IMG/VR virus record: IMGVR_UViG_2541047790_000003
Strand: one strand, 5' to 3'
DNA length: 10,589 nt
From: a virus
Taxonomy: Duplodnaviria; Heunggongvirae; Uroviricota; Caudoviricetes
Part shown: piece by piece, positions 1,991-8,247 of the stretch
Layout of the letters: every line of letters starts with the position of its first letter
Numbering within the stretch: position 1 is the stretch's first letter
Notes under the pieces: model-generated
Databases searched by the model: none
Told to the model about the DNA's origin: nothing
What the model saw: the letters and a program-made list of their open reading frames with translations, nothing else
Translations under genes and position numbers: made by a program

Positions 1991-2896
1991 ATGCCAAATT
2001 TACCGATGGGCGGATCGCAGGGTGAATTACCCTTAGTACCTACAGTAGAAGTTGTTGCTGATGGCATTCCTATGGGGGTGCTTAATGATGGAACCCCTTA
2101 TCTAACTCTTTACGGTTTAGCCAAATTATGTGGCATAGATGAAGCACCTCTTCGAATGTTTACATCTAACTGGGAGACTGAAAAAAATAAGCCAAGAGGA
2201 CAAAAAGTAGCTGCATACTTAGCTGAGAAAGGATTTAACAACGTTGACCGACTGTATACCCGCGTCATAAATAGCTCAAACGTTGAAACACATGCTTATC
2301 CTGACTATGTTTGTATGGCTATCCTCCGTTACTACGCTCTAGATGCCACCAATTTTGATAGGTCAGTCGCAATAGGTAATTTTGTTCGCTTGGCTGAGTA
2401 CACGCTTAAGCGAATGATTTATGAAAAGTCAAATTACAACCCAAATGCTTCAATAGATATCTCATTCGAGAACTATAGAGCAAGGATTAAGCTAAACGAT
2501 CAGATACCGACAACTCATTTTGCAGTATTCAGAGAGATAGCTGACATTGCCATGAACCTGATCGGAGGAGGATTCCCAATGGATGACACCACATCTTTGG
2601 ATGGAAGTGTTGGAATTCACTGGGGAAAGTATTGGACAGCTAATGGGCTATCTGAGAAATTCGGGGAAAGGGTGCAGTACCCACATCTATTCCCCGAAAA
2701 TTACAGGCAGTCAGCTGCAAATAAGCATATAAAAGCTTGGATTTATCCTATTGAGGCACTTGGCGTGTTCAGAAAATGGCTACACGATAATTACGCAATG
2801 GAAAAACTGCCAAATTACCTTGGGAACAAAAAGATTAGTAATGCCTCCGAGCTATTAGAGTTGATAAAAAAACCAGCACTCCCAAATAAGCATTGA
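1991..2896 (+). CDS. Hypothetical 301-aa protein in the rexAB slot; candidate exclusion/defence gene with a possible KilA-N/Bro-N-like N-terminal domain
   Basis: ATG at 1991 with AAGGA 12 nt upstream; 301 codons ending TGA at 2894-2896; protein-like composition; coding sequence is AT-richer by eye than cI and N. No similarity to RexA noticed. The N-terminal segment ...VPTVEVVADGIPMGVLNDGTPYLTLYGLAKLCGIDE... is reminiscent of KilA-N/Bro-N domains; this is unverified. Confidence 0.8.
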   Translation: MPNLPMGGSQGELPLVPTVEVVADGIPMGVLNDGTPYLTLYGLAKLCGIDEAPLRMFTSNWETEKNKPRGQKVAAYLAEKGFNNVDRLYTRVINSSNVETHAYPDYVCMAILRYYALDATNFDRSVAIGNFVRLAEYTLKRMIYEKSNYNPNASIDISFENYRARIKLNDQIPTTHFAVFREIADIAMNLIGGGFPMDDTTSLDGSVGIHWGKYWTANGLSEKFGERVQYPHLFPENYRQSAANKHIKAWIYPIEALGVFRKWLHDNYAMEKLPNYLGNKKISNASELLELIKKPALPNKH

Positions 2897-2907
2897 TCTC
2901 CACCACA

Positions 2908-2934
2908 ACCCGGCATCTGCGCCGGGTTTTCTTT
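2908..2934 (+). terminator. Rho-independent terminator downstream of the 301-aa gene (tImm equivalent)
   Basis: Stem ACCCGGC (2908-2914) pairs with GCCGGGT (2921-2927) around loop ATCTGC, followed by a T-rich run TTTTCTTT. Confidence 0.75.
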
Positions 2935-3084
2935 GCCTAACGCCCCCAAAAAACACATAACCAATTGTATTTATTTTAAAATTAATAGATACAACTCGCT
3001 AAACATCGCAATTCATATCTCTCGATCACCTTCCCAATCCACACAACCCTGCAAAAAATAAATCTATATAAAAAACATACAGAT

Positions 3085-3155
3085 AACCATCTGCGGTGAT
3101 AAATTATCTCTGGCGGTGTTGACATGAATACCACTGGCGGTGATACTAAGCACAT
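3085..3155 (+). promoter_or_regulatory. Left operator OL3-OL2-OL1 with promoter pL
   Basis: OL3 AACCATCTGCGGTGATA (3085-3101), OL2 TATCTCTGGCGGTGTTG (3105-3121), OL1 TACCACTGGCGGTGATA (3129-3145); -35 TTGACA (3119-3124) and -10 GATACT (3142-3147). Matches lambda pL/OL with a few substitutions. Confidence 0.9.
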
Positions 3156-3187
3156 CAGCAGGACGCACTGACCACCATGAAGGTGAT

Positions 3188-3217
3188 GCTCTTAAAAATT
3201 AAGCCCTGAAGAAGGGC
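3188..3217 (+). promoter_or_regulatory. nutL N-utilisation site (boxA and boxB)
   Basis: boxA GCTCTTAAAAATT (3188-3200) and boxB hairpin GCCCTGAAGAAGGGC (3203-3217) in the pL leader. Confidence 0.8.
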
Positions 3218-3374
3218 AGCATTCAAAGCAGAAAGCTTTGGTGTGTGTGATACGAAACGAAGCATTGGCCGGAAGTGCGAATCCGGATTAGCTGCCAATG
3301 TGCCATTGCGGGGTGTTTTCGTTCAGGAATACGACTCCCACACACAACCAAAGCTAACTGACAGGAGAATCCTG

Positions 3375-3701
3375 ATGGATGCACAAACACGCCGCCGCGA
3401 ACGTCGCGCAGAGAAACAGGCTCAATGGAAAACAGCAAACCCCCTGTTGGTTGGGGTAAGCGCAAAACCAGTTAACCGCCCTATTCTCTCGCTGAATCGC
3501 AAACCGAAATCACGAGTAGAAAGCGTACTGAATCCGATAGACCTTACAGTGCTGGCTGAATACCACGAACAGATTGAAAGCAACCTGCAGCGTATTGAGC
3601 GCAAGAATCAGCGCACATGGTACAGCAAGCCACGCAGTGAAATGGGTGTGACTTGTGTTGGTCGCCAGAAAATGAAATTAGGCAGCAAACCACTTATTTG
3701 A
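3375..3701 (+). CDS. N: Antitermination protein N
   Basis: ATG at 3375 with AGGAGA RBS. Translation MDAQTRRRERRAEKQAQWKTANPLLVGVSAKPVNRPILSLNRKPKSRVESVLNPIDLTVLAEYHEQIESNLQRIERKNQRTWYSKP... includes the arginine-rich boxB-binding N-terminus; about 90% like lambda N from memory, with a divergent C-terminus. The ORF-track start at 3243 is an upstream extension. Confidence 0.95.
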   Translation: MDAQTRRRERRAEKQAQWKTANPLLVGVSAKPVNRPILSLNRKPKSRVESVLNPIDLTVLAEYHEQIESNLQRIERKNQRTWYSKPRSEMGVTCVGRQKMKLGSKPLI

Positions 3702-3712
3702 GAGGAATTAAT

Positions 3713-4336
3713 ATGTCATCAATCCGCTTAACTACGAGAATGAAAGAGGAAATCGCTCGTAACGCTTTAATTAAGTCTGGGGTTTTCACTGAACTTGAAG
3801 AAGTAACAAAGTTAAAGAACCAGCTTGCACTTGACGCCAGAGTTATTGCGTTTGGCGGGAAAAAGAAAACTGAGGAAGTTGATCAGTTATCATCCAAGTT
3901 GGTAGCTATAAGTGAAGAACTTGAAAAGATGGGATGTTCATTTTACTCATACGATGTTCGTTCTACTTCAATTTATCTGACTGCATCTGGCAGAAGGATT
4001 GGATGGCATTCATATGGGAAAGACGGCAACGGCGAAGATATATTGCTCCCTACTCCGAACAAAGATAAATGCATGTTTAGCGCAGAACACGAAATAACAA
4101 AAAGGTTTGATGAAATCTGCGCATTGCAACAAAAACTTGAAGCCAAGAAAAAGGATATCGAATCAAATGTATGGGCTGCTTTGAACTCAGTCACAACAGT
4201 TAAGCGACTTATTGAGGTTTGGCCTGAAAGCAAAGAATTGCTACCAAAAGAAGCAGATAAAGCAAGTACAGCACTTCCTGCTTTACGGGTAGAAGATTTG
4301 AATAAGATGATTGGACTTCCTTCCGAGGCCGCATAG
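3713..4336 (+). CDS. Hypothetical 207-aa protein (cargo gene immediately after N)
   Basis: ATG at 3713 with GAGGAA 6 nt upstream, 11 nt after the N stop; 207 codons of protein-like composition (MSSIRLTTRMKEEIARNALIKSGVFTELEEV...); low GC by eye. No family recognised. Confidence 0.8.
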   Translation: MSSIRLTTRMKEEIARNALIKSGVFTELEEVTKLKNQLALDARVIAFGGKKKTEEVDQLSSKLVAISEELEKMGCSFYSYDVRSTSIYLTASGRRIGWHSYGKDGNGEDILLPTPNKDKCMFSAEHEITKRFDEICALQQKLEAKKKDIESNVWAALNSVTTVKRLIEVWPESKELLPKEADKASTALPALRVEDLNKMIGLPSEAA

Positions 4337-4351
4337 TCGGCCTTTATTTTT
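4326..4351 (+). terminator. Rho-independent terminator overlapping the stop of the 207-aa gene
   Basis: AGGCCG (4326-4331) pairs with CGGCCT (4338-4343) around loop CATAGT, followed by TTTATTTTT. Confidence 0.7.
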
Positions 4352-4399
4352 GGCATAAACAACAGAATAAACACTGCACTGAATTATTTGAGGTGAGAT

Positions 4400-4870
4400 A
4401 TGACAAAATCACGGAGCGTACCTTTTCCTGAATCAGAAACTGAACATAATGGAATGCCTGTTTTCTGGAGATTCCAAGCGACAGTTGAAGAAGATGGAAT
4501 CAAAATATTCGCACTTCAATATATAGCTTTTCATCAGACAGAGCATTATGCATGGTTGGTTCCTGCGCATTGGATTGTTGATTTTAAACCAGCACCAAAT
4601 CAGTGGTTACAGGAATGGAAACAAAGGAGAAATAGATATGCAATTAAGAAAGTAGCAAAAAATGCAGAAAGATCTTTTGCATTCCCAACGAAGAAACTTG
4701 CTATTGAAAGTTTATTGCGTCGGAAGAAATACCATTTAATGAGAATAAAACAAGATTTGGCTGTTGTATCAACTCTTGTTGATGGGATGAAAAATATTGA
4801 TACATCAATACCAGATATTGAATATAACTTTGGACACAACCAAGAAACAGAAAATTGGGTATTTTATTAG
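4400..4870 (+). CDS. Hypothetical 156-aa protein (second cargo gene)
   Basis: ATG at 4400 with GAGGTGA RBS 4390-4396; 156 codons (MTKSRSVPFPESETEHNGMPVFWRFQATVEEDGIKIF...), basic C-terminal half; low GC by eye. No family recognised. Confidence 0.8.
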   Translation: MTKSRSVPFPESETEHNGMPVFWRFQATVEEDGIKIFALQYIAFHQTEHYAWLVPAHWIVDFKPAPNQWLQEWKQRRNRYAIKKVAKNAERSFAFPTKKLAIESLLRRKKYHLMRIKQDLAVVSTLVDGMKNIDTSIPDIEYNFGHNQETENWVFY

Positions 4871-4882
4871 TACGAATAAGCA

Positions 4883-4914
4883 CTGTGTATTCATTCCAAC
4901 GAGTGAATACACGG
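4883..4914 (+). other. Strong hairpin / inverted repeat without a T-tract
   Basis: GTGTATTCA (4885-4893) pairs perfectly with TGAATACAC (4904-4912) around a 10-nt loop, extendable by two flanking pairs; not followed by a U-run. Confidence 0.45.
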
Positions 4915-4974
4915 AGCAATGTCGCTCGTAACTAAACAGGAGCCGACTTGTTCTGATTATTGGAAATCTTCTTT

Positions 4975-5000
4975 GCCCTCCAGTGTGAGGGCGATTTTTT
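4975..5000 (+). terminator. Rho-independent terminator
   Basis: GCCCTC (4975-4980) pairs with GAGGGC (4987-4992) around loop CAGTGT, followed by GATTTTTT. Confidence 0.75.
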
Positions 5001-5020
5001 ATCTATGAGGATATGAATAG

Positions 5021-5389
5021 ATGTCAAACATCAAAAAATACATCATTGATTACGACTGGAAAGCATCAATAGAAATTGAAATCGACCATGACGTAATGAC
5101 AGAGGAAAAACTTCACCAGATTAATAATTTCTGGTCAGACTCTGAATACCGACTCAATAAACACGGCTCTGTATTAAATGCTGTATTAATCATGCTGGCG
5201 CAACATGCTCTGCTTATAGCAATTTCAAGCGACTTAAATGCATATGGTGTTGTGTGTGAGTTCGACTGGAATGATGGAAATGGTCAGGAAGGATGGCCTC
5301 CAATGGATGGTAGCGAAGGAATAAGAATTACCGATATCGATACATCAGGAATATTTGATTCAGATGATATGACTATCAAAGCCGCCTGA
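5021..5389 (+). CDS. Ea10-like early protein (122 aa); identity tentative
   Basis: ATG at 5021 with GAGGA upstream; 122 codons, the same length as lambda Ea10, in the same relative position of the pL operon; acidic C-terminus. Assignment is from position and weak recollection. Confidence 0.6.
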   Translation: MSNIKKYIIDYDWKASIEIEIDHDVMTEEKLHQINNFWSDSEYRLNKHGSVLNAVLIMLAQHALLIAISSDLNAYGVVCEFDWNDGNGQEGWPPMDGSEGIRITDIDTSGIFDSDDMTIKAA

Positions 5390-5423
5390 GAGCGTTTTTA
5401 AAGAATACAACGAAGGAGGATAT

Positions 5424-6392
5424 ATGAGTGAAGTAACAGATTTAGTTGTTATTGAAAAATCAAATGCAATGACTGTATTTCAGTCTGCCGACCAGATTGA
5501 AGAAATCCTTCAAAAGGTTGAACGTGAAGTTATGTCCTTTGTTCCTGATATCACAACGGCAAAGGGCAGGAAGGAGATCGCTTCTCTGGCGTATAAAGTT
5601 GCGCAGACGAAAACATATCTCGATGGTCTTGGCAAAGACCTTGTTGCTGAACTGAAGGAAATTCCAAAGCTAATTGATGCCAACCGCAAGACAGTGCGTG
5701 ATCGCCTTGATGAGCTGAAAGCCAAGGCACGCCAGCCTCTTACTGATTATGAGGAAGAACAGGCGCGGATTAAAGCCGAAGAAGAAGCTAAGGCAGCAGC
5801 TGAAGCTCTCGCAAAGCAAATTGAGTCTGACCATGAAATAGCTATTTTGATGGATCGCGAATTTGACCGCCAAAGAGAAGAGGCAAGACTCAAAGCGGAG
5901 CAGGAAAAGCGAGAGCATGAAGAACGCTTAAAAAGAGAAGCTGAAGAGAAAGCCAGAGCAGAAGCCGAAGCAAAGGCAAAAGCCGAAATTGAAGCAGCAG
6001 CAAGGCGAGAAGCAGAAGCTAAGGCCGCTGCGGAACGAGCAGAGCGTGAACGCATTGAAGCCGAGCAACGAGCACAGCGCGAAGCAAAAGAGGCAGCAGA
6101 ACGAGCTGAAAGAGAAAAGCAGGCAGCAATTGAAGCAGAACGCAGAAAAGCACAGGAGGAGGCTGAACAAATCCGTCGCGATGCTGAAGCAAAAGAGCAA
6201 GCCAGAATAGCAGAAGAAAAAAGAATCAAGGACGAAGAAGAGCGTAGAGCAAAGGATAAAGCTCACCGGAAAGAAGTTAATAACAAAATACTTGCTGACC
6301 TTATCAAGGTTGGCGCATCAGAAGATGTTGCTAAAAATATCATAACAGCCATCGTAAAAGGCGAAGTATTCGCAACAAAAATAACCTACTAA
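5424..6392 (+). CDS. Hypothetical 322-aa protein with a long E/A/K/R-rich central helix
   Basis: ATG at 5424 with AAGGAGGA RBS. Globular-looking N-terminus (about 110 aa), then about 180 residues made almost entirely of E, A, K, R and Q (EAEAKAKAEIEAAARREAEAKAAAERAERERIEAEQRAQREAKEAAERAEREKQ...), then a short C-terminal domain. Confidence 0.85.
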   Translation: MSEVTDLVVIEKSNAMTVFQSADQIEEILQKVEREVMSFVPDITTAKGRKEIASLAYKVAQTKTYLDGLGKDLVAELKEIPKLIDANRKTVRDRLDELKAKARQPLTDYEEEQARIKAEEEAKAAAEALAKQIESDHEIAILMDREFDRQREEARLKAEQEKREHEERLKREAEEKARAEAEAKAKAEIEAAARREAEAKAAAERAERERIEAEQRAQREAKEAAERAEREKQAAIEAERRKAQEEAEQIRRDAEAKEQARIAEEKRIKDEEERRAKDKAHRKEVNNKILADLIKVGASEDVAKNIITAIVKGEVFATKITY

Positions 6393-6760: not shown

Positions 6761-6931
6761 ATGTCACTTGCAACCACAGTGAAGGAGAGCAAGTTACAGA
6801 GACGCATGTACACGCAGCAGGCGTTAATGTATCGCCAGAAGGGAGATCGTGAAGGTGTTCGCGTATTTTTAAATGCGGCAAAGACTGAAGTATTAAATCA
6901 GCGTTATTTCCTTGGGCCATGTCCATTCTGA
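6761..6931 (+). CDS. Small 56-aa protein in the arf-equivalent position before erf; tentative
   Basis: ATG at 6761 with GGAG 6 nt upstream; 56 codons MSLATTVKESKLQRRMYTQQALMYRQKGDREGVRVFLNAAKTEVLNQRYFLGPCPF; stop at 6929-6931 lies 10 nt before the erf start, suggesting coupling. An alternative overlapping frame 6682-6852 also exists. Confidence 0.4.
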   Translation: MSLATTVKESKLQRRMYTQQALMYRQKGDREGVRVFLNAAKTEVLNQRYFLGPCPF

Positions 6932-6941
6932 GAACAAACAT

Positions 6942-7547
6942 ATGAGTAAAGAATTTTACGCAAGACTGGCAGCTATTCAGGAGAATCTGAACGCGCCAAA
7001 GAATCAGTACAACTCATTCGGTAAATATAAATACAGAAGCTGCGAAGACATTCTTGAAGGCGTTAAGCCGTTACTGAATGGCCTGTTTTTATCAATCAGC
7101 GATGAAGTTGTGTTGATTGGTGATCGGTATTACGTAAAAGCCACGGCAACTATTACCGATGGCGAAAACAGTCATACGGCAACCGCTCTTGCACGAGAGG
7201 AAGAAAGCAAGAAAGGAATGGATTCTGCACAAGTTACTGGAGCTACAAGCTCTTATGCGCGCAAGTATTGCCTCAATGGTTTGTTCGGCATTGATGATGC
7301 GAAAGATGCAGATACCGACGAACATAAACATCAGCAGAACGCAGCAGCAAAGCAATCAAAACCATCACCTACACCTGAACAGGTTCTAAAAGCATTCACT
7401 GACGCAGCAATGCAAAAAAACACCGTGGAAGAGCTTAAACAGGCGTTCGCCAAAGCGTGGAAGATGCTCGAAGGAACACCGGAGCAGCACAAAGCGCAGG
7501 ACGTTTACAACATCAGACGTGACGAATTAGAAGGAGCGTCTGCTTAA
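6942..7547 (+). CDS. erf: Erf-family single-strand annealing protein (P22 Erf-like recombinase)
   Basis: ATG at 6942. N-terminus MSKEFYARLAAIQENLNAPKNQYNSFGKYKYRSCEDILEGVKPLLNGL matches the conserved ERF-family motif as I recall it. The ORF-track start at 6912 is a TTG extension. Confidence 0.85.
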   Translation: MSKEFYARLAAIQENLNAPKNQYNSFGKYKYRSCEDILEGVKPLLNGLFLSISDEVVLIGDRYYVKATATITDGENSHTATALAREEESKKGMDSAQVTGATSSYARKYCLNGLFGIDDAKDADTDEHKHQQNAAAKQSKPSPTPEQVLKAFTDAAMQKNTVEELKQAFAKAWKMLEGTPEQHKAQDVYNIRRDELEGASA

Positions 7548-7930
7548 TGGCACATTCGATTACTGTAAGACTAAACAAGCCCGCAAGAGAGTTTCAGGCC
7601 GGGGAAAATATCGGATTCAACATCCGTGCTGGCGTTCAGTATTACGATCGCCAGACAAAAAAGAAAGAATGGACAAACTACAGCGCCGTTGTATTTGCCA
7701 AGCCGGGAGCGCAAGCGGATTACTACCGTAGTGTTCTTGTTGAAGGTGGCATTGTGGAAATTACCGGAGAAAACATCAGGGTTGATGTTTATCAGGGGCA
7801 AAATGGTCAATCAATCACTCTTGAATTACTGAATGCAAAGATTGGATTTGCAGCTTCAGGAAATGGCCCGCAGCAGCAAAGTAGTAACCAGCAGAACACT
7901 CCTGTATACGACGATTCCATCCCATTCTGA
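7547..7930 (+). CDS. Compact SSB-like single-stranded DNA-binding protein (127 aa)
   Basis: ATG at 7547 overlaps the erf stop (TAATG) with AAGGAG upstream. OB-fold-like core, a Gly/Gln-rich linker, and a C-terminal ...YDDSIPF tail matching the SSB C-terminal protein-interaction motif DDDIPF. Confidence 0.75.
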   Translation: MAHSITVRLNKPAREFQAGENIGFNIRAGVQYYDRQTKKKEWTNYSAVVFAKPGAQADYYRSVLVEGGIVEITGENIRVDVYQGQNGQSITLELLNAKIGFAASGNGPQQQSSNQQNTPVYDDSIPF

Positions 7931-7953
7931 TTTAGAAAAATAAGGATTTAATT

Positions 7954-8247
7954 ATGCCAGCGCCTCTGTATGGTGCGGATGACCCACGCCGCTGTTCCGG
8001 CAATTCCGTATCGGAGGTGCTGGATAAATTCAGGAAAAACTACGACCGGATAATGTCGCTACCGCAGGAAACGAAAGAGGAAAAGGAATTTCGCCATTGT
8101 ATATGGCTTGCAGAGAAAGAAGAACTAGAGCGAATTTACCAGACATCAATCCGACCATTCCGCAAAGCCACATATACCCACTTCCCTGAAATTGACCCGC
8201 GCCTGCGTAATTACCGCTCACGCTATGGCGCTATCAGTAATGACTGA
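7954..8247 (+). CDS. Hypothetical 97-aa protein, possibly an Abc2-like RecBCD modulator (tentative)
   Basis: ATG at 7954 with AAGGA 7 nt upstream; 97 codons [36 protein letters not shown].... Size and position after erf fit P22 Abc2; sequence identity is not verified. Confidence 0.7.

Follow-up and report, generated by a model that had tools for sequence, protein, structure and literature searches.

The Nmad5 domain was reportedly named by Iyer et al. in 2013. In a later study, the name is traced to a computational association with modification genes (PMC11846954). The same study, by Yamashita et al. in 2025, describes the genetics of a family member: in Dhillonvirus phages, escape from the anti-phage defence system Tmn results from one substitution in nmad5 (K216E in SM_A8, K296E in SM_S22), and reversion of the substitution brings Tmn sensitivity back; an SM_S22 phage with nmad5 deleted is viable, yet it does not escape Tmn, and the Dhillonvirus gene could not be cloned, with apparent toxicity (PMC11846954). 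According to a 2026 preprint, an early phage protein activates Tmn by binding to it directly; in T2 this protein is RIIB, which is described as replisome-associated (PMC13001434). In M6, the thymidine-hypermodification steps have been assigned in vitro to gp51–54, with lysates of gp51–55 (PMC8989533); the Nmad5 gene comes next along in the SN1/YuA gene order, and by that order it lies outside the gp51–55 mix. The present analysis concerns a gene for a 207-amino-acid protein of this family in a stretch of 10,589 nucleotides of caudoviricete DNA (IMG/VR record IMGVR_UViG_2541047790_000003), hereafter the window, where it directly follows the antiterminator gene N in the early-left operon of a lambda-like prophage.

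Together with a terminator, this gene constitutes a self-contained mosaic module behind N in the pL operon. It most likely encodes an early lytic-cycle accessory protein and not a prophage defence function, and the name "nucleotide modification" is probably owed to guilt by association with gene neighbours elsewhere among phages and not to an activity in this prophage. The searched literature, including that on mEp235, HK542, and lambdoid accessory-gene screens, contains nothing on this gene; under the family name, no biochemical activity for Nmad5 was found in it, nor was an earlier report of Nmad5 in the earliest-expressed early-left slot, and a 2017 paper on polyvalent proteins makes no mention of Nmad.

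Family membership and conserved features of the protein

The open reading frame (ORF) at positions 3713–4336 on the plus strand encodes a full-length Nmad5 family member. Residues 4–203 of the product align with positions 1–206 of the 206-position Pfam profile PF18757 (Nmad5; E 9.4e-72, 241.8 bits against a cutoff of 27), the protein matches phrog_1965, a family of unknown function, with E 1.7e-83, and an identical protein is annotated in RefSeq by PGAP as "Nmad5 family putative nucleotide modification protein" (WP_001576832.1). The original prediction, made by a model from the DNA letters, had recognized no family, a statement that these three assignments overturn. No NCBIfam model matches the protein. 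A Pfam similarity to YfjL_C (E 0.004, below threshold) was set aside as coiled-coil similarity, and a possible SAP/HeH motif was dropped, as the C-terminal L-x-x-L-x-V-x-D-L...G-L resembles the first half of that motif and the second helix is missing.

All the family-invariant residues, namely R5, R43, G48-G49, G93, T162, L166, W170-P171-E172, E175, L176, P178, N197, and G201-L-P, are present, each being conserved in 89–99% of 196 diverse members. Across the same 196 members, the conserved positions comprise R5, L6, I14, N17, A18, K21, G23, R43, G48, G49, and G93 from the N-terminus to the middle, T162, K164, L166, W170, P171, E172, E175, L176, and P178 within residues 162–178, and L188, P189, L196, N197, G201, L202, and P203 in the tail, with the lowest sequence entropy in 151–180 and 193–204. 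The best-conserved motif of the family, of the form T-x-K-R-L-x-x-x-W-P-E-x-x-E-L-x-P, is represented in the window protein by T-T-V-K-R-L-I-E-V-W-P-E, the codons of residues 163–178 lying at 4201–4248 on the plus strand (VKRLIEVWPESKELLP), and the C-terminal tail has the form L-P...L-N-x-x-I-G-L-P. R, K, G, W, P, E, N, and L make up the invariant set, and no His/Cys/Asp/Ser constellation is conserved across the 196 members.

The lysines substituted in the Tmn-escape phages, K216 of SM_A8 and K296 of SM_S22, both align with R165 within this motif, where they form the second lysine of N-T-D-K-K-L-I-K-A-W-P-E, and 80% of the family carry either K or R there. The two numbers differ because the annotated start of the SM_S22 gene (CDS6, at 361–1365 of the examined locus; 334 amino acids) lies 80 codons upstream of the conserved M-R-L-T-K start, which is the one used in SM_A8 and BF9 (254 amino acids). 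The SM_S22 extension overlaps an opposite-strand head-scaffold gene, and to judge from these start contexts the SM_S22 call may be over-long.

The isoelectric point (pI) of the window protein is 6.77, with 32 acidic (D+E) and 32 basic (K+R) residues, and the family median is 7.6; so near-neutral a pI rules out a DNA mimic like Ocr or ArdA. An AlphaFold2 model built from a 26-sequence alignment has a mean predicted local distance difference test score (pLDDT) of 84.7. Three helices make up its N-terminal part, including an antiparallel hairpin with the conserved A-x-G-G at its tip (46–49); a small beta region (86–121), a long helix (127–158), and short helices follow, and the model ends in a low-confidence linker (183–191) and a short C-terminal helix. 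In residues 183–207, low pLDDT is combined with the lowest sequence entropy, and the modelled tail may therefore be a docking peptide for a partner. Predicted viral structures of other Nmad5 proteins in BFVD match the model with template modelling scores of up to 0.76. Among solved structures, the search returned generic helical hairpins below any meaningful threshold and none that resembles the model, and a sequence search of the PDB with the 26-sequence profile returned coiled-coil noise (E ≥ 0.33).

Position in the pL operon

The immunity and early-left genes of the window are lambda-like and are shown with pL transcribed to the right; cII and cro lie on the minus strand, and cI is at 1159–1872 (99% identity to lambda cI). 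Positions 2907–3676, containing pL, nutL, and most of N, align at 91% identity with lambda 35826–35062, a segment that carries oL1–3 and pL. The predicted pL promoter at 3119–3147 on the plus strand (TTGACA, 17 nt, GATACT), which matches 10 of 12 consensus positions in a consensus scan, would drive N and the Nmad5 ORF. The putative nutL boxB hairpin (GCCCTGAAGAAGGGC; 3203–3217, plus strand), read in the lambda-homologous block that includes the annotated Nutl, was also detected as a small hairpin in a hairpin scan. The N gene (3375–3701, plus strand) encodes a lambda-type antiterminator of 108 amino acids, with a Pfam N36 match (E 7.3e-26) and the PGAP label "antitermination protein N"; its TGA stop codon lies at 3699–3701, and the lambda homology ends at 3676, within the 3′ end of N.

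The Nmad5 ORF begins with ATG at 3713–3715, 11 nt from the N stop, and its own stop codon ends at 4336. A Shine-Dalgarno sequence, GAGAGGA, is readable at 3700–3706 on the plus strand, where it overlaps the N stop codon, and its AGGA ends 6 nt ahead of the ATG. The ORF, its distance from N, and the good ribosome-binding site are as originally described, and the overlap between the Shine-Dalgarno sequence and the N stop makes translational coupling to N possible. The G+C content is 40.2% for the ORF, 44.1% for the window, and 49.7% for N, so that the low value seen earlier by eye is right in direction and modest in size. An opposite-strand ORF at 3973–4374 was dismissed as a gene, since the profile match belongs to the plus strand.

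In the consensus scan, no plus-strand promoter-like site appears between pL and the Nmad5 ORF, and the first terminator-like site past pL on this strand is a hairpin at 4325–4344. A gene without a promoter-like site of its own, placed 11 nt behind N and ahead of that hairpin, would be silent in the lysogen and made together with N. The hairpin has a 7-bp G+C-rich stem followed by TATTTTT, giving an intrinsic-terminator-like element at 4325–4351 on the plus strand. Its folding energy of −11 kcal/mol (z = −1.64 against shuffles) is unremarkable when taken alone; among 76 relatives, about 50 retain the stem at its full −11 kcal/mol, and the hairpin moves along with the Nmad5 gene. The mosaic junction with lambda, at 4333, falls within the hairpin loop: the right arm and the T-tract are lambda sequence, found after ral in lambda, and the left arm is the 3′ coding end of Nmad5. 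The resulting hybrid stem is stronger than the one lambda has at that place. The hairpin and T-tract noted in the original prediction are therefore present, but, on the alignment with lambda, they are not purely the gene's own.

Lambda homology is lost after window position 3676 (lambda 35062) and regained at 4333 (lambda 34087, one nucleotide past the ral stop). This gap in homology indicates that the Nmad5 module replaces the 3′ tip of N together with sieB-orf28-ral, and is not a pure insertion; the earlier description of a gene inserted after N, where lambda has sieB and ral, was accurate about the place, and in the alignment it is the word "inserted" that does not stand.

The surroundings of the gene were classified in 78 parsed close relatives, the upstream neighbour being an ORF of at least 50 amino acids that ends ahead of Nmad5. 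This neighbour is a lambda-type N with the 11-nt gap in 32 of the 78, in 14 a 127-amino-acid ORF whose similarity to Pfam N_peptide stays below the threshold (E 5e-4), Ral (Pfam Ral PF11058, E 2.2e-48) in 8, and, in 5, a 112-amino-acid arginine-rich ORF that may be N-like; the remainder have other small ORFs or none. Downstream, more than ten unrelated classes of neighbour occur. The synteny survey called for in the original prediction thus bears out its view of the N-proximal part of the operon as variable. The idea that Nmad5 is simply an alternative to ral has to be abandoned: Ral (Pfam E 2e-48) is encoded directly upstream in 8 of the 78, so the two are not interchangeable. The Pfam Ral model (PF11058) does not recognize the window protein. 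In one of these IMG/VR loci (L025) and seven others, ral ends 36 nt before the Nmad5 start.

Conservation and distribution

The ORF is intact in 80 of 80 close relatives in IMG/VR, with 207 amino acids in 78 and 204 in 2, and the median pairwise ratio of nonsynonymous to synonymous substitution rates (dN/dS) is 0.31 over 61 distinct alleles, in which the variable residues fall mostly within 45–150 and both termini are conserved. The gene is under purifying selection (dN/dS about 0.3). The original view of a real gene with unassigned function is well founded in this respect, given the Pfam match, the intact frames, and this ratio. Among 5426 complete Escherichia coli genomes, 211 carry the gene, 209 of them with at least 80% of it covered, at 95–99% identity; the N-Nmad5-orf156 segment is identical in 16 complete E. 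coli genomes, the identical protein is annotated in ST131-type genomes, and the phages mEp235 and HK542 carry copies 97% identical. A profile search of a 50%-identity library of 1.84 billion representatives returned 2297 clusters at E ≤ 1e-3, and nearly all of the best 150 of these are standalone proteins of 185–230 amino acids. A contig scan with narrow degenerate patterns returned four loci. The plasmid search gave six matches, all of them non-mobilizable and phage-sized or phage-like, and an anti-defence location in plasmid leading regions is unsupported by them.

Disruption in relatives, which according to the original prediction would have spoken against its proposal, occurs in the Stx2a-converting phage Stx2_13518 (positions 2238–3451 and 3567–4025 of the examined locus), where an element of the IS3 family (orfA, 108 amino acids; orfB, 296 amino acids) splits Nmad5 in its 5′ part, after about residue 33; elsewhere, as noted, the frame is intact. 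The other Stx2a phage records listed have the same alignment pattern, restricted to residues 34–207.

A chance ORF or a decaying remnant is effectively refuted by this conservation: the IS-split copy and a dN/dS of 0.31, which is not very low, are the observations in its favour, and they are outweighed by the Pfam E of 9e-72, the 2297 family clusters, the intact frame in 80 of 80 relatives and the at least 80% coverage in 209 of 211 E. coli genomes, and the confident AlphaFold2 model.

Genomic context of the family

Prophages of Klebsiella, Providencia, Serratia, and Pantoea, and metagenomic prophages as well, carry homologs 40–59% identical to the window protein. In each, the gene is located just past the S24-type repressor, where it either opens the divergent early-left operon or comes second in it, with a small ORF or an HNH homing gene in front. 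What else the operon contains varies: Kil-xis-int in Klebsiella, DUF2800, ssDNA-binding protein, and PolA genes in Providencia, and ParB-like or methylase genes elsewhere. At the Providencia locus, the repressor and Nmad5 have no N-like ORF between them. Among virulent phages and more remote temperate ones, the placement varies. In Dhillonvirus, the gene is an opposite-strand gene within the head module; in ZRG1, it lies between terminase and portal, and in a Vibrio myovirus inside the tail module. In the N4-like KpCHEMY26, it stands between thymidylate synthase and a PD-(D/E)XK exonuclease/primase; in YuA, gp15 (Nmad5) has the 5-hmdU kinase/aGPT-Pplase genes on one side and the dUMP hydroxymethylase on the other, with the same cassette in SN1; and in the temperate SPN3UB, it belongs to the nin region, two genes downstream of a DpdA-like (queuine tRNA-ribosyltransferase-like) gene. 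The Providencia copy precedes the DUF2800, ssDNA-binding protein, and PolA genes, and a nuclease gene is nearby. No modification enzyme was found in the window or in the rest of the prophage early region; such neighbours are a feature of context and not a sequence criterion, and membership in Nmad5 is unaffected by their absence.

Possible function

Early timing, dispensability, and a moron-like placement in virulent phages argue for an accessory protein and not for a core subunit of replication or modification, whereas binding of a cellular or immune component, and not catalysis, is what one would read from a homolog that is toxic, from escape through a reversed charge at a conserved basic position, and from the lack of any catalytic-type residues. 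On these grounds, our tentative preference, held without strong conviction, is for an immediate-early, non-enzymatic binding protein that acts in host takeover or counter-defence. In a lysogen, cI would repress pL and Nmad5 would be silent; upon infection or induction, the protein would be made together with N in the first pL transcript, and, as a helical binding protein, it would use its conserved basic residues, the W-P-E motif, and the flexible C-terminal tail to dock on a conserved cellular or immune target, with host takeover or counter-defence following within the first minutes of lytic growth. A more specific version, in which Nmad5 is misnamed and the basic motif and the tail of a non-enzymatic immediate-early protein engage a Tmn-type sensor, or the structure that such a sensor watches, is doubtful.

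Several observations weigh against a binding protein for host takeover or counter-defence. The Tmn-linked homolog is only 33–37% identical, over the C-terminal half only, and it is the one member of the family on which experiments have been made; the Tmn genetics are ambiguous, as missense changes escape but a deletion does not. The window protein is near-neutral (pI 6.8), and its conserved basic residues fit DNA binding equally well. YuA gp15 and the KpCHEMY26, SPN3UB, and Providencia members lie within clusters for replication, nucleotide metabolism, or DNA modification. Moreover, the promoter and terminator calls come from simple consensus scans, and the hairpin is modest (z −1.64), with stem mismatches in about a third of the relatives.

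The main rival is an accessory factor acting on phage DNA, in modification, replication, recombination, or repair, perhaps as a subunit for DNA binding or recruitment or as a protein that shields replication intermediates. The family name points this way, having come from association with modification genes (PMC11846954), as do the place of gp15 and its SN1 counterpart in a hypermodification cassette, the neighbours in KpCHEMY26, SPN3UB, and Providencia, the conserved basic R5, K21, R43, K164, and R165, the presence of Erf and Abc2 in the same pL operon, and the replisome association of the Tmn trigger RIIB (PMC13001434). These points are set against the missing modification enzyme in the window and prophage early region, the assignment of the M6 chemistry without Nmad5 (PMC8989533), the dispensability of the gene (deleted in SM_S22, IS-split in Stx2a phage), the absence of conserved catalytic-type residues, and a promoter-proximal slot, together with head- and tail-module placements, that would be unusual for a replisome or modification subunit. 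A role on phage DNA is therefore rather unlikely, although it deserves serious consideration.

A regulator of early transcription or of the lysis-lysogeny choice, for example, a helical hairpin with the conserved GG tip acting on RNA polymerase or another regulator, is improbable. The slot beside the immunity region in every temperate lineage sampled, and the occurrence of Nmad5 in the expected place of N in several of these lineages, would suit such a regulator, but N itself co-occurs in the window, the structural matches are sub-threshold generic helical hairpins, the gene is dispensable in SM_S22, and the family is common in virulent phages, which make no lysogeny decision.

Still less credible, and very improbable in our estimation, is a gene that protects the lysogen through defence or superinfection exclusion, like sieB at the same place in lambda. 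It is suggested by the occupation of the sieB/ral interval, by a BstA abortive-infection gene nearby in the prophage, and by the toxicity of the cloned homolog (PMC11846954). Nevertheless, no family of PADLOC-DB matches the protein at E up to 1, in a search where the neighbouring BstA served as internal control (2.9e-106); there is no SieB similarity and no homology over the replaced lambda segment; the gene, for which the consensus scan shows no separate promoter-like site, follows N by 11 nt within the pL transcript that cI represses; and obligately lytic phages of several groups (Dhillonvirus, N4-like, YuA-like) commonly have a family member. The original prediction had treated defence and anti-defence as both plausible; the absence of a PADLOC match and of an own promoter-like site, and the frequency of the family in strictly virulent phages, tell against the former, while the latter retains its plausibility under the preferred reading of an immediate-early binding protein.

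Other features of the window

Downstream of the hairpin, orf156 (4400–4870, 156 amino acids) is a clean insertion in the lambda ral-ea10 intergenic region, at lambda 34040/34045. It matches phrog_1636, of unknown function, and has a G+C content of about 35%; only 41 E. coli genomes and 9 of the 78 relatives have both this ORF and Nmad5. The ORF at 5021–5389 encodes a protein identical to lambda Ea10 (DUF2528), in a surrounding of 529 nt that is 98.5% identical to lambda. Between ea10 and cIII, where lambda has no counterpart, lies a 322-amino-acid ORF (5424–6392; phrog_1376, unknown function), whose central part is an extremely charged E/A/K/R repeat helix and produces the AT-skew peak of 0.72. 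The recombination module at 6912–8247 is P22-like and not lambda-like, with Erf (Pfam E 2e-44), a 127-amino-acid ORF without family match, and the anti-RecBCD protein Abc2 (Pfam E 8e-63).

On the other side of pL, the place of lambda rexA/rexB between cI and pL is taken by a 301-amino-acid BstA abortive-infection homolog (1991–2896; phrog_6287 E 5e-135, PADLOC BstA E 2.9e-106), which PGAP labels only "hypothetical protein", and a terminator-like hairpin lies beside it at 2907–2928. An IS66-family transposase gene contributes its 3′ end, which makes up the first 219 positions (ORF 4–189; Pfam DDE_Tnp_IS66_C E 2e-17), and from 220 on the window is 99.99% identical to the ZH063 prophage, which indicates that in the source genome an IS66 element abuts the region just past cII; the replication region of the prophage may be disrupted by it. 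An Rfam scan of 2800–5500 gave no RNA family.

Comparison with known systems

As a discovery, the gene is ordinary, since its family is catalogued and an identical protein is publicly annotated. What is new is the exact definition of the mosaic boundaries against lambda, the conservation of the promoter-proximal position across enterobacterial genera, the assignment of the Tmn-escape residue, which is the family's sole genetic handle, to the core motif, and the argument that the "nucleotide modification" label misdescribes the copy in this prophage, with the caution that follows against reading it literally. If the more specific reading, with a Tmn-type sensor, is right, Nmad5 would be a new and very widespread family (at least 2297 clusters) for counter-defence or host takeover, which in many temperate phages of enterobacteria leads the early-left operon. 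The family is large and phage-specific, and, with copies 97% identical in the laboratory coliphages HK542 and mEp235, its function is testable in a lambda-like system.

Lambda Ral and SieB occupy the same interval, between N and ea10, as the window gene. Ral is N-proximal, early, and non-essential, and acts on a host system in restriction alleviation, and SieB acts in the lysogen. Neither has sequence homology to Nmad5; Ral, moreover, has 66 amino acids, and it co-occurs upstream of Nmad5 in the eight relatives mentioned above. With T7 Ocr (gene 0.3), the first gene product from the entering genome, and with ArdA, the analogy is one of timing only: Ocr and ArdA are strongly acidic DNA mimics, whereas the window protein, with a pI of 6.8 and 32 acidic and 32 basic residues, has no similarity of fold to them.

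YuA gp15 and its M6/SN1 counterparts are early or middle genes, and residues 121–207 align with them at about 44% identity, but they are embedded among hypermodification genes and the window Nmad5 has no such neighbours. The Dhillonvirus proteins (SM_S22 CDS6, SM_A8 CDS7) resemble the window protein in the C-terminal half (33–37% identity) and have in common with it the T-x-K-[KR]-L-I-x-x-W-P-E motif and the L-N-x-x-x-G-x-P tail; they differ in their length of 254 amino acids, with a larger central insert, and in belonging to virulent phages as opposite-strand head-module genes, and toxicity and the interaction with Tmn have been demonstrated for this homolog only. RIIB of T2/T4 is likewise early and non-essential, and point mutations in it escape Tmn as they do in Dhillonvirus nmad5; in RIIB, however, nonsense mutations also escape and the protein alone activates Tmn (PMC13001434), whereas deletion of nmad5 gives no escape. 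The closest system is the Nmad5 family itself, from which the window protein shows no structural difference; the prophage offers no neighbouring modification gene to justify the name, and the protein shares with the named family the full-length profile match, the invariant residues, the standalone form of about 200 amino acids, and the predicted fold.

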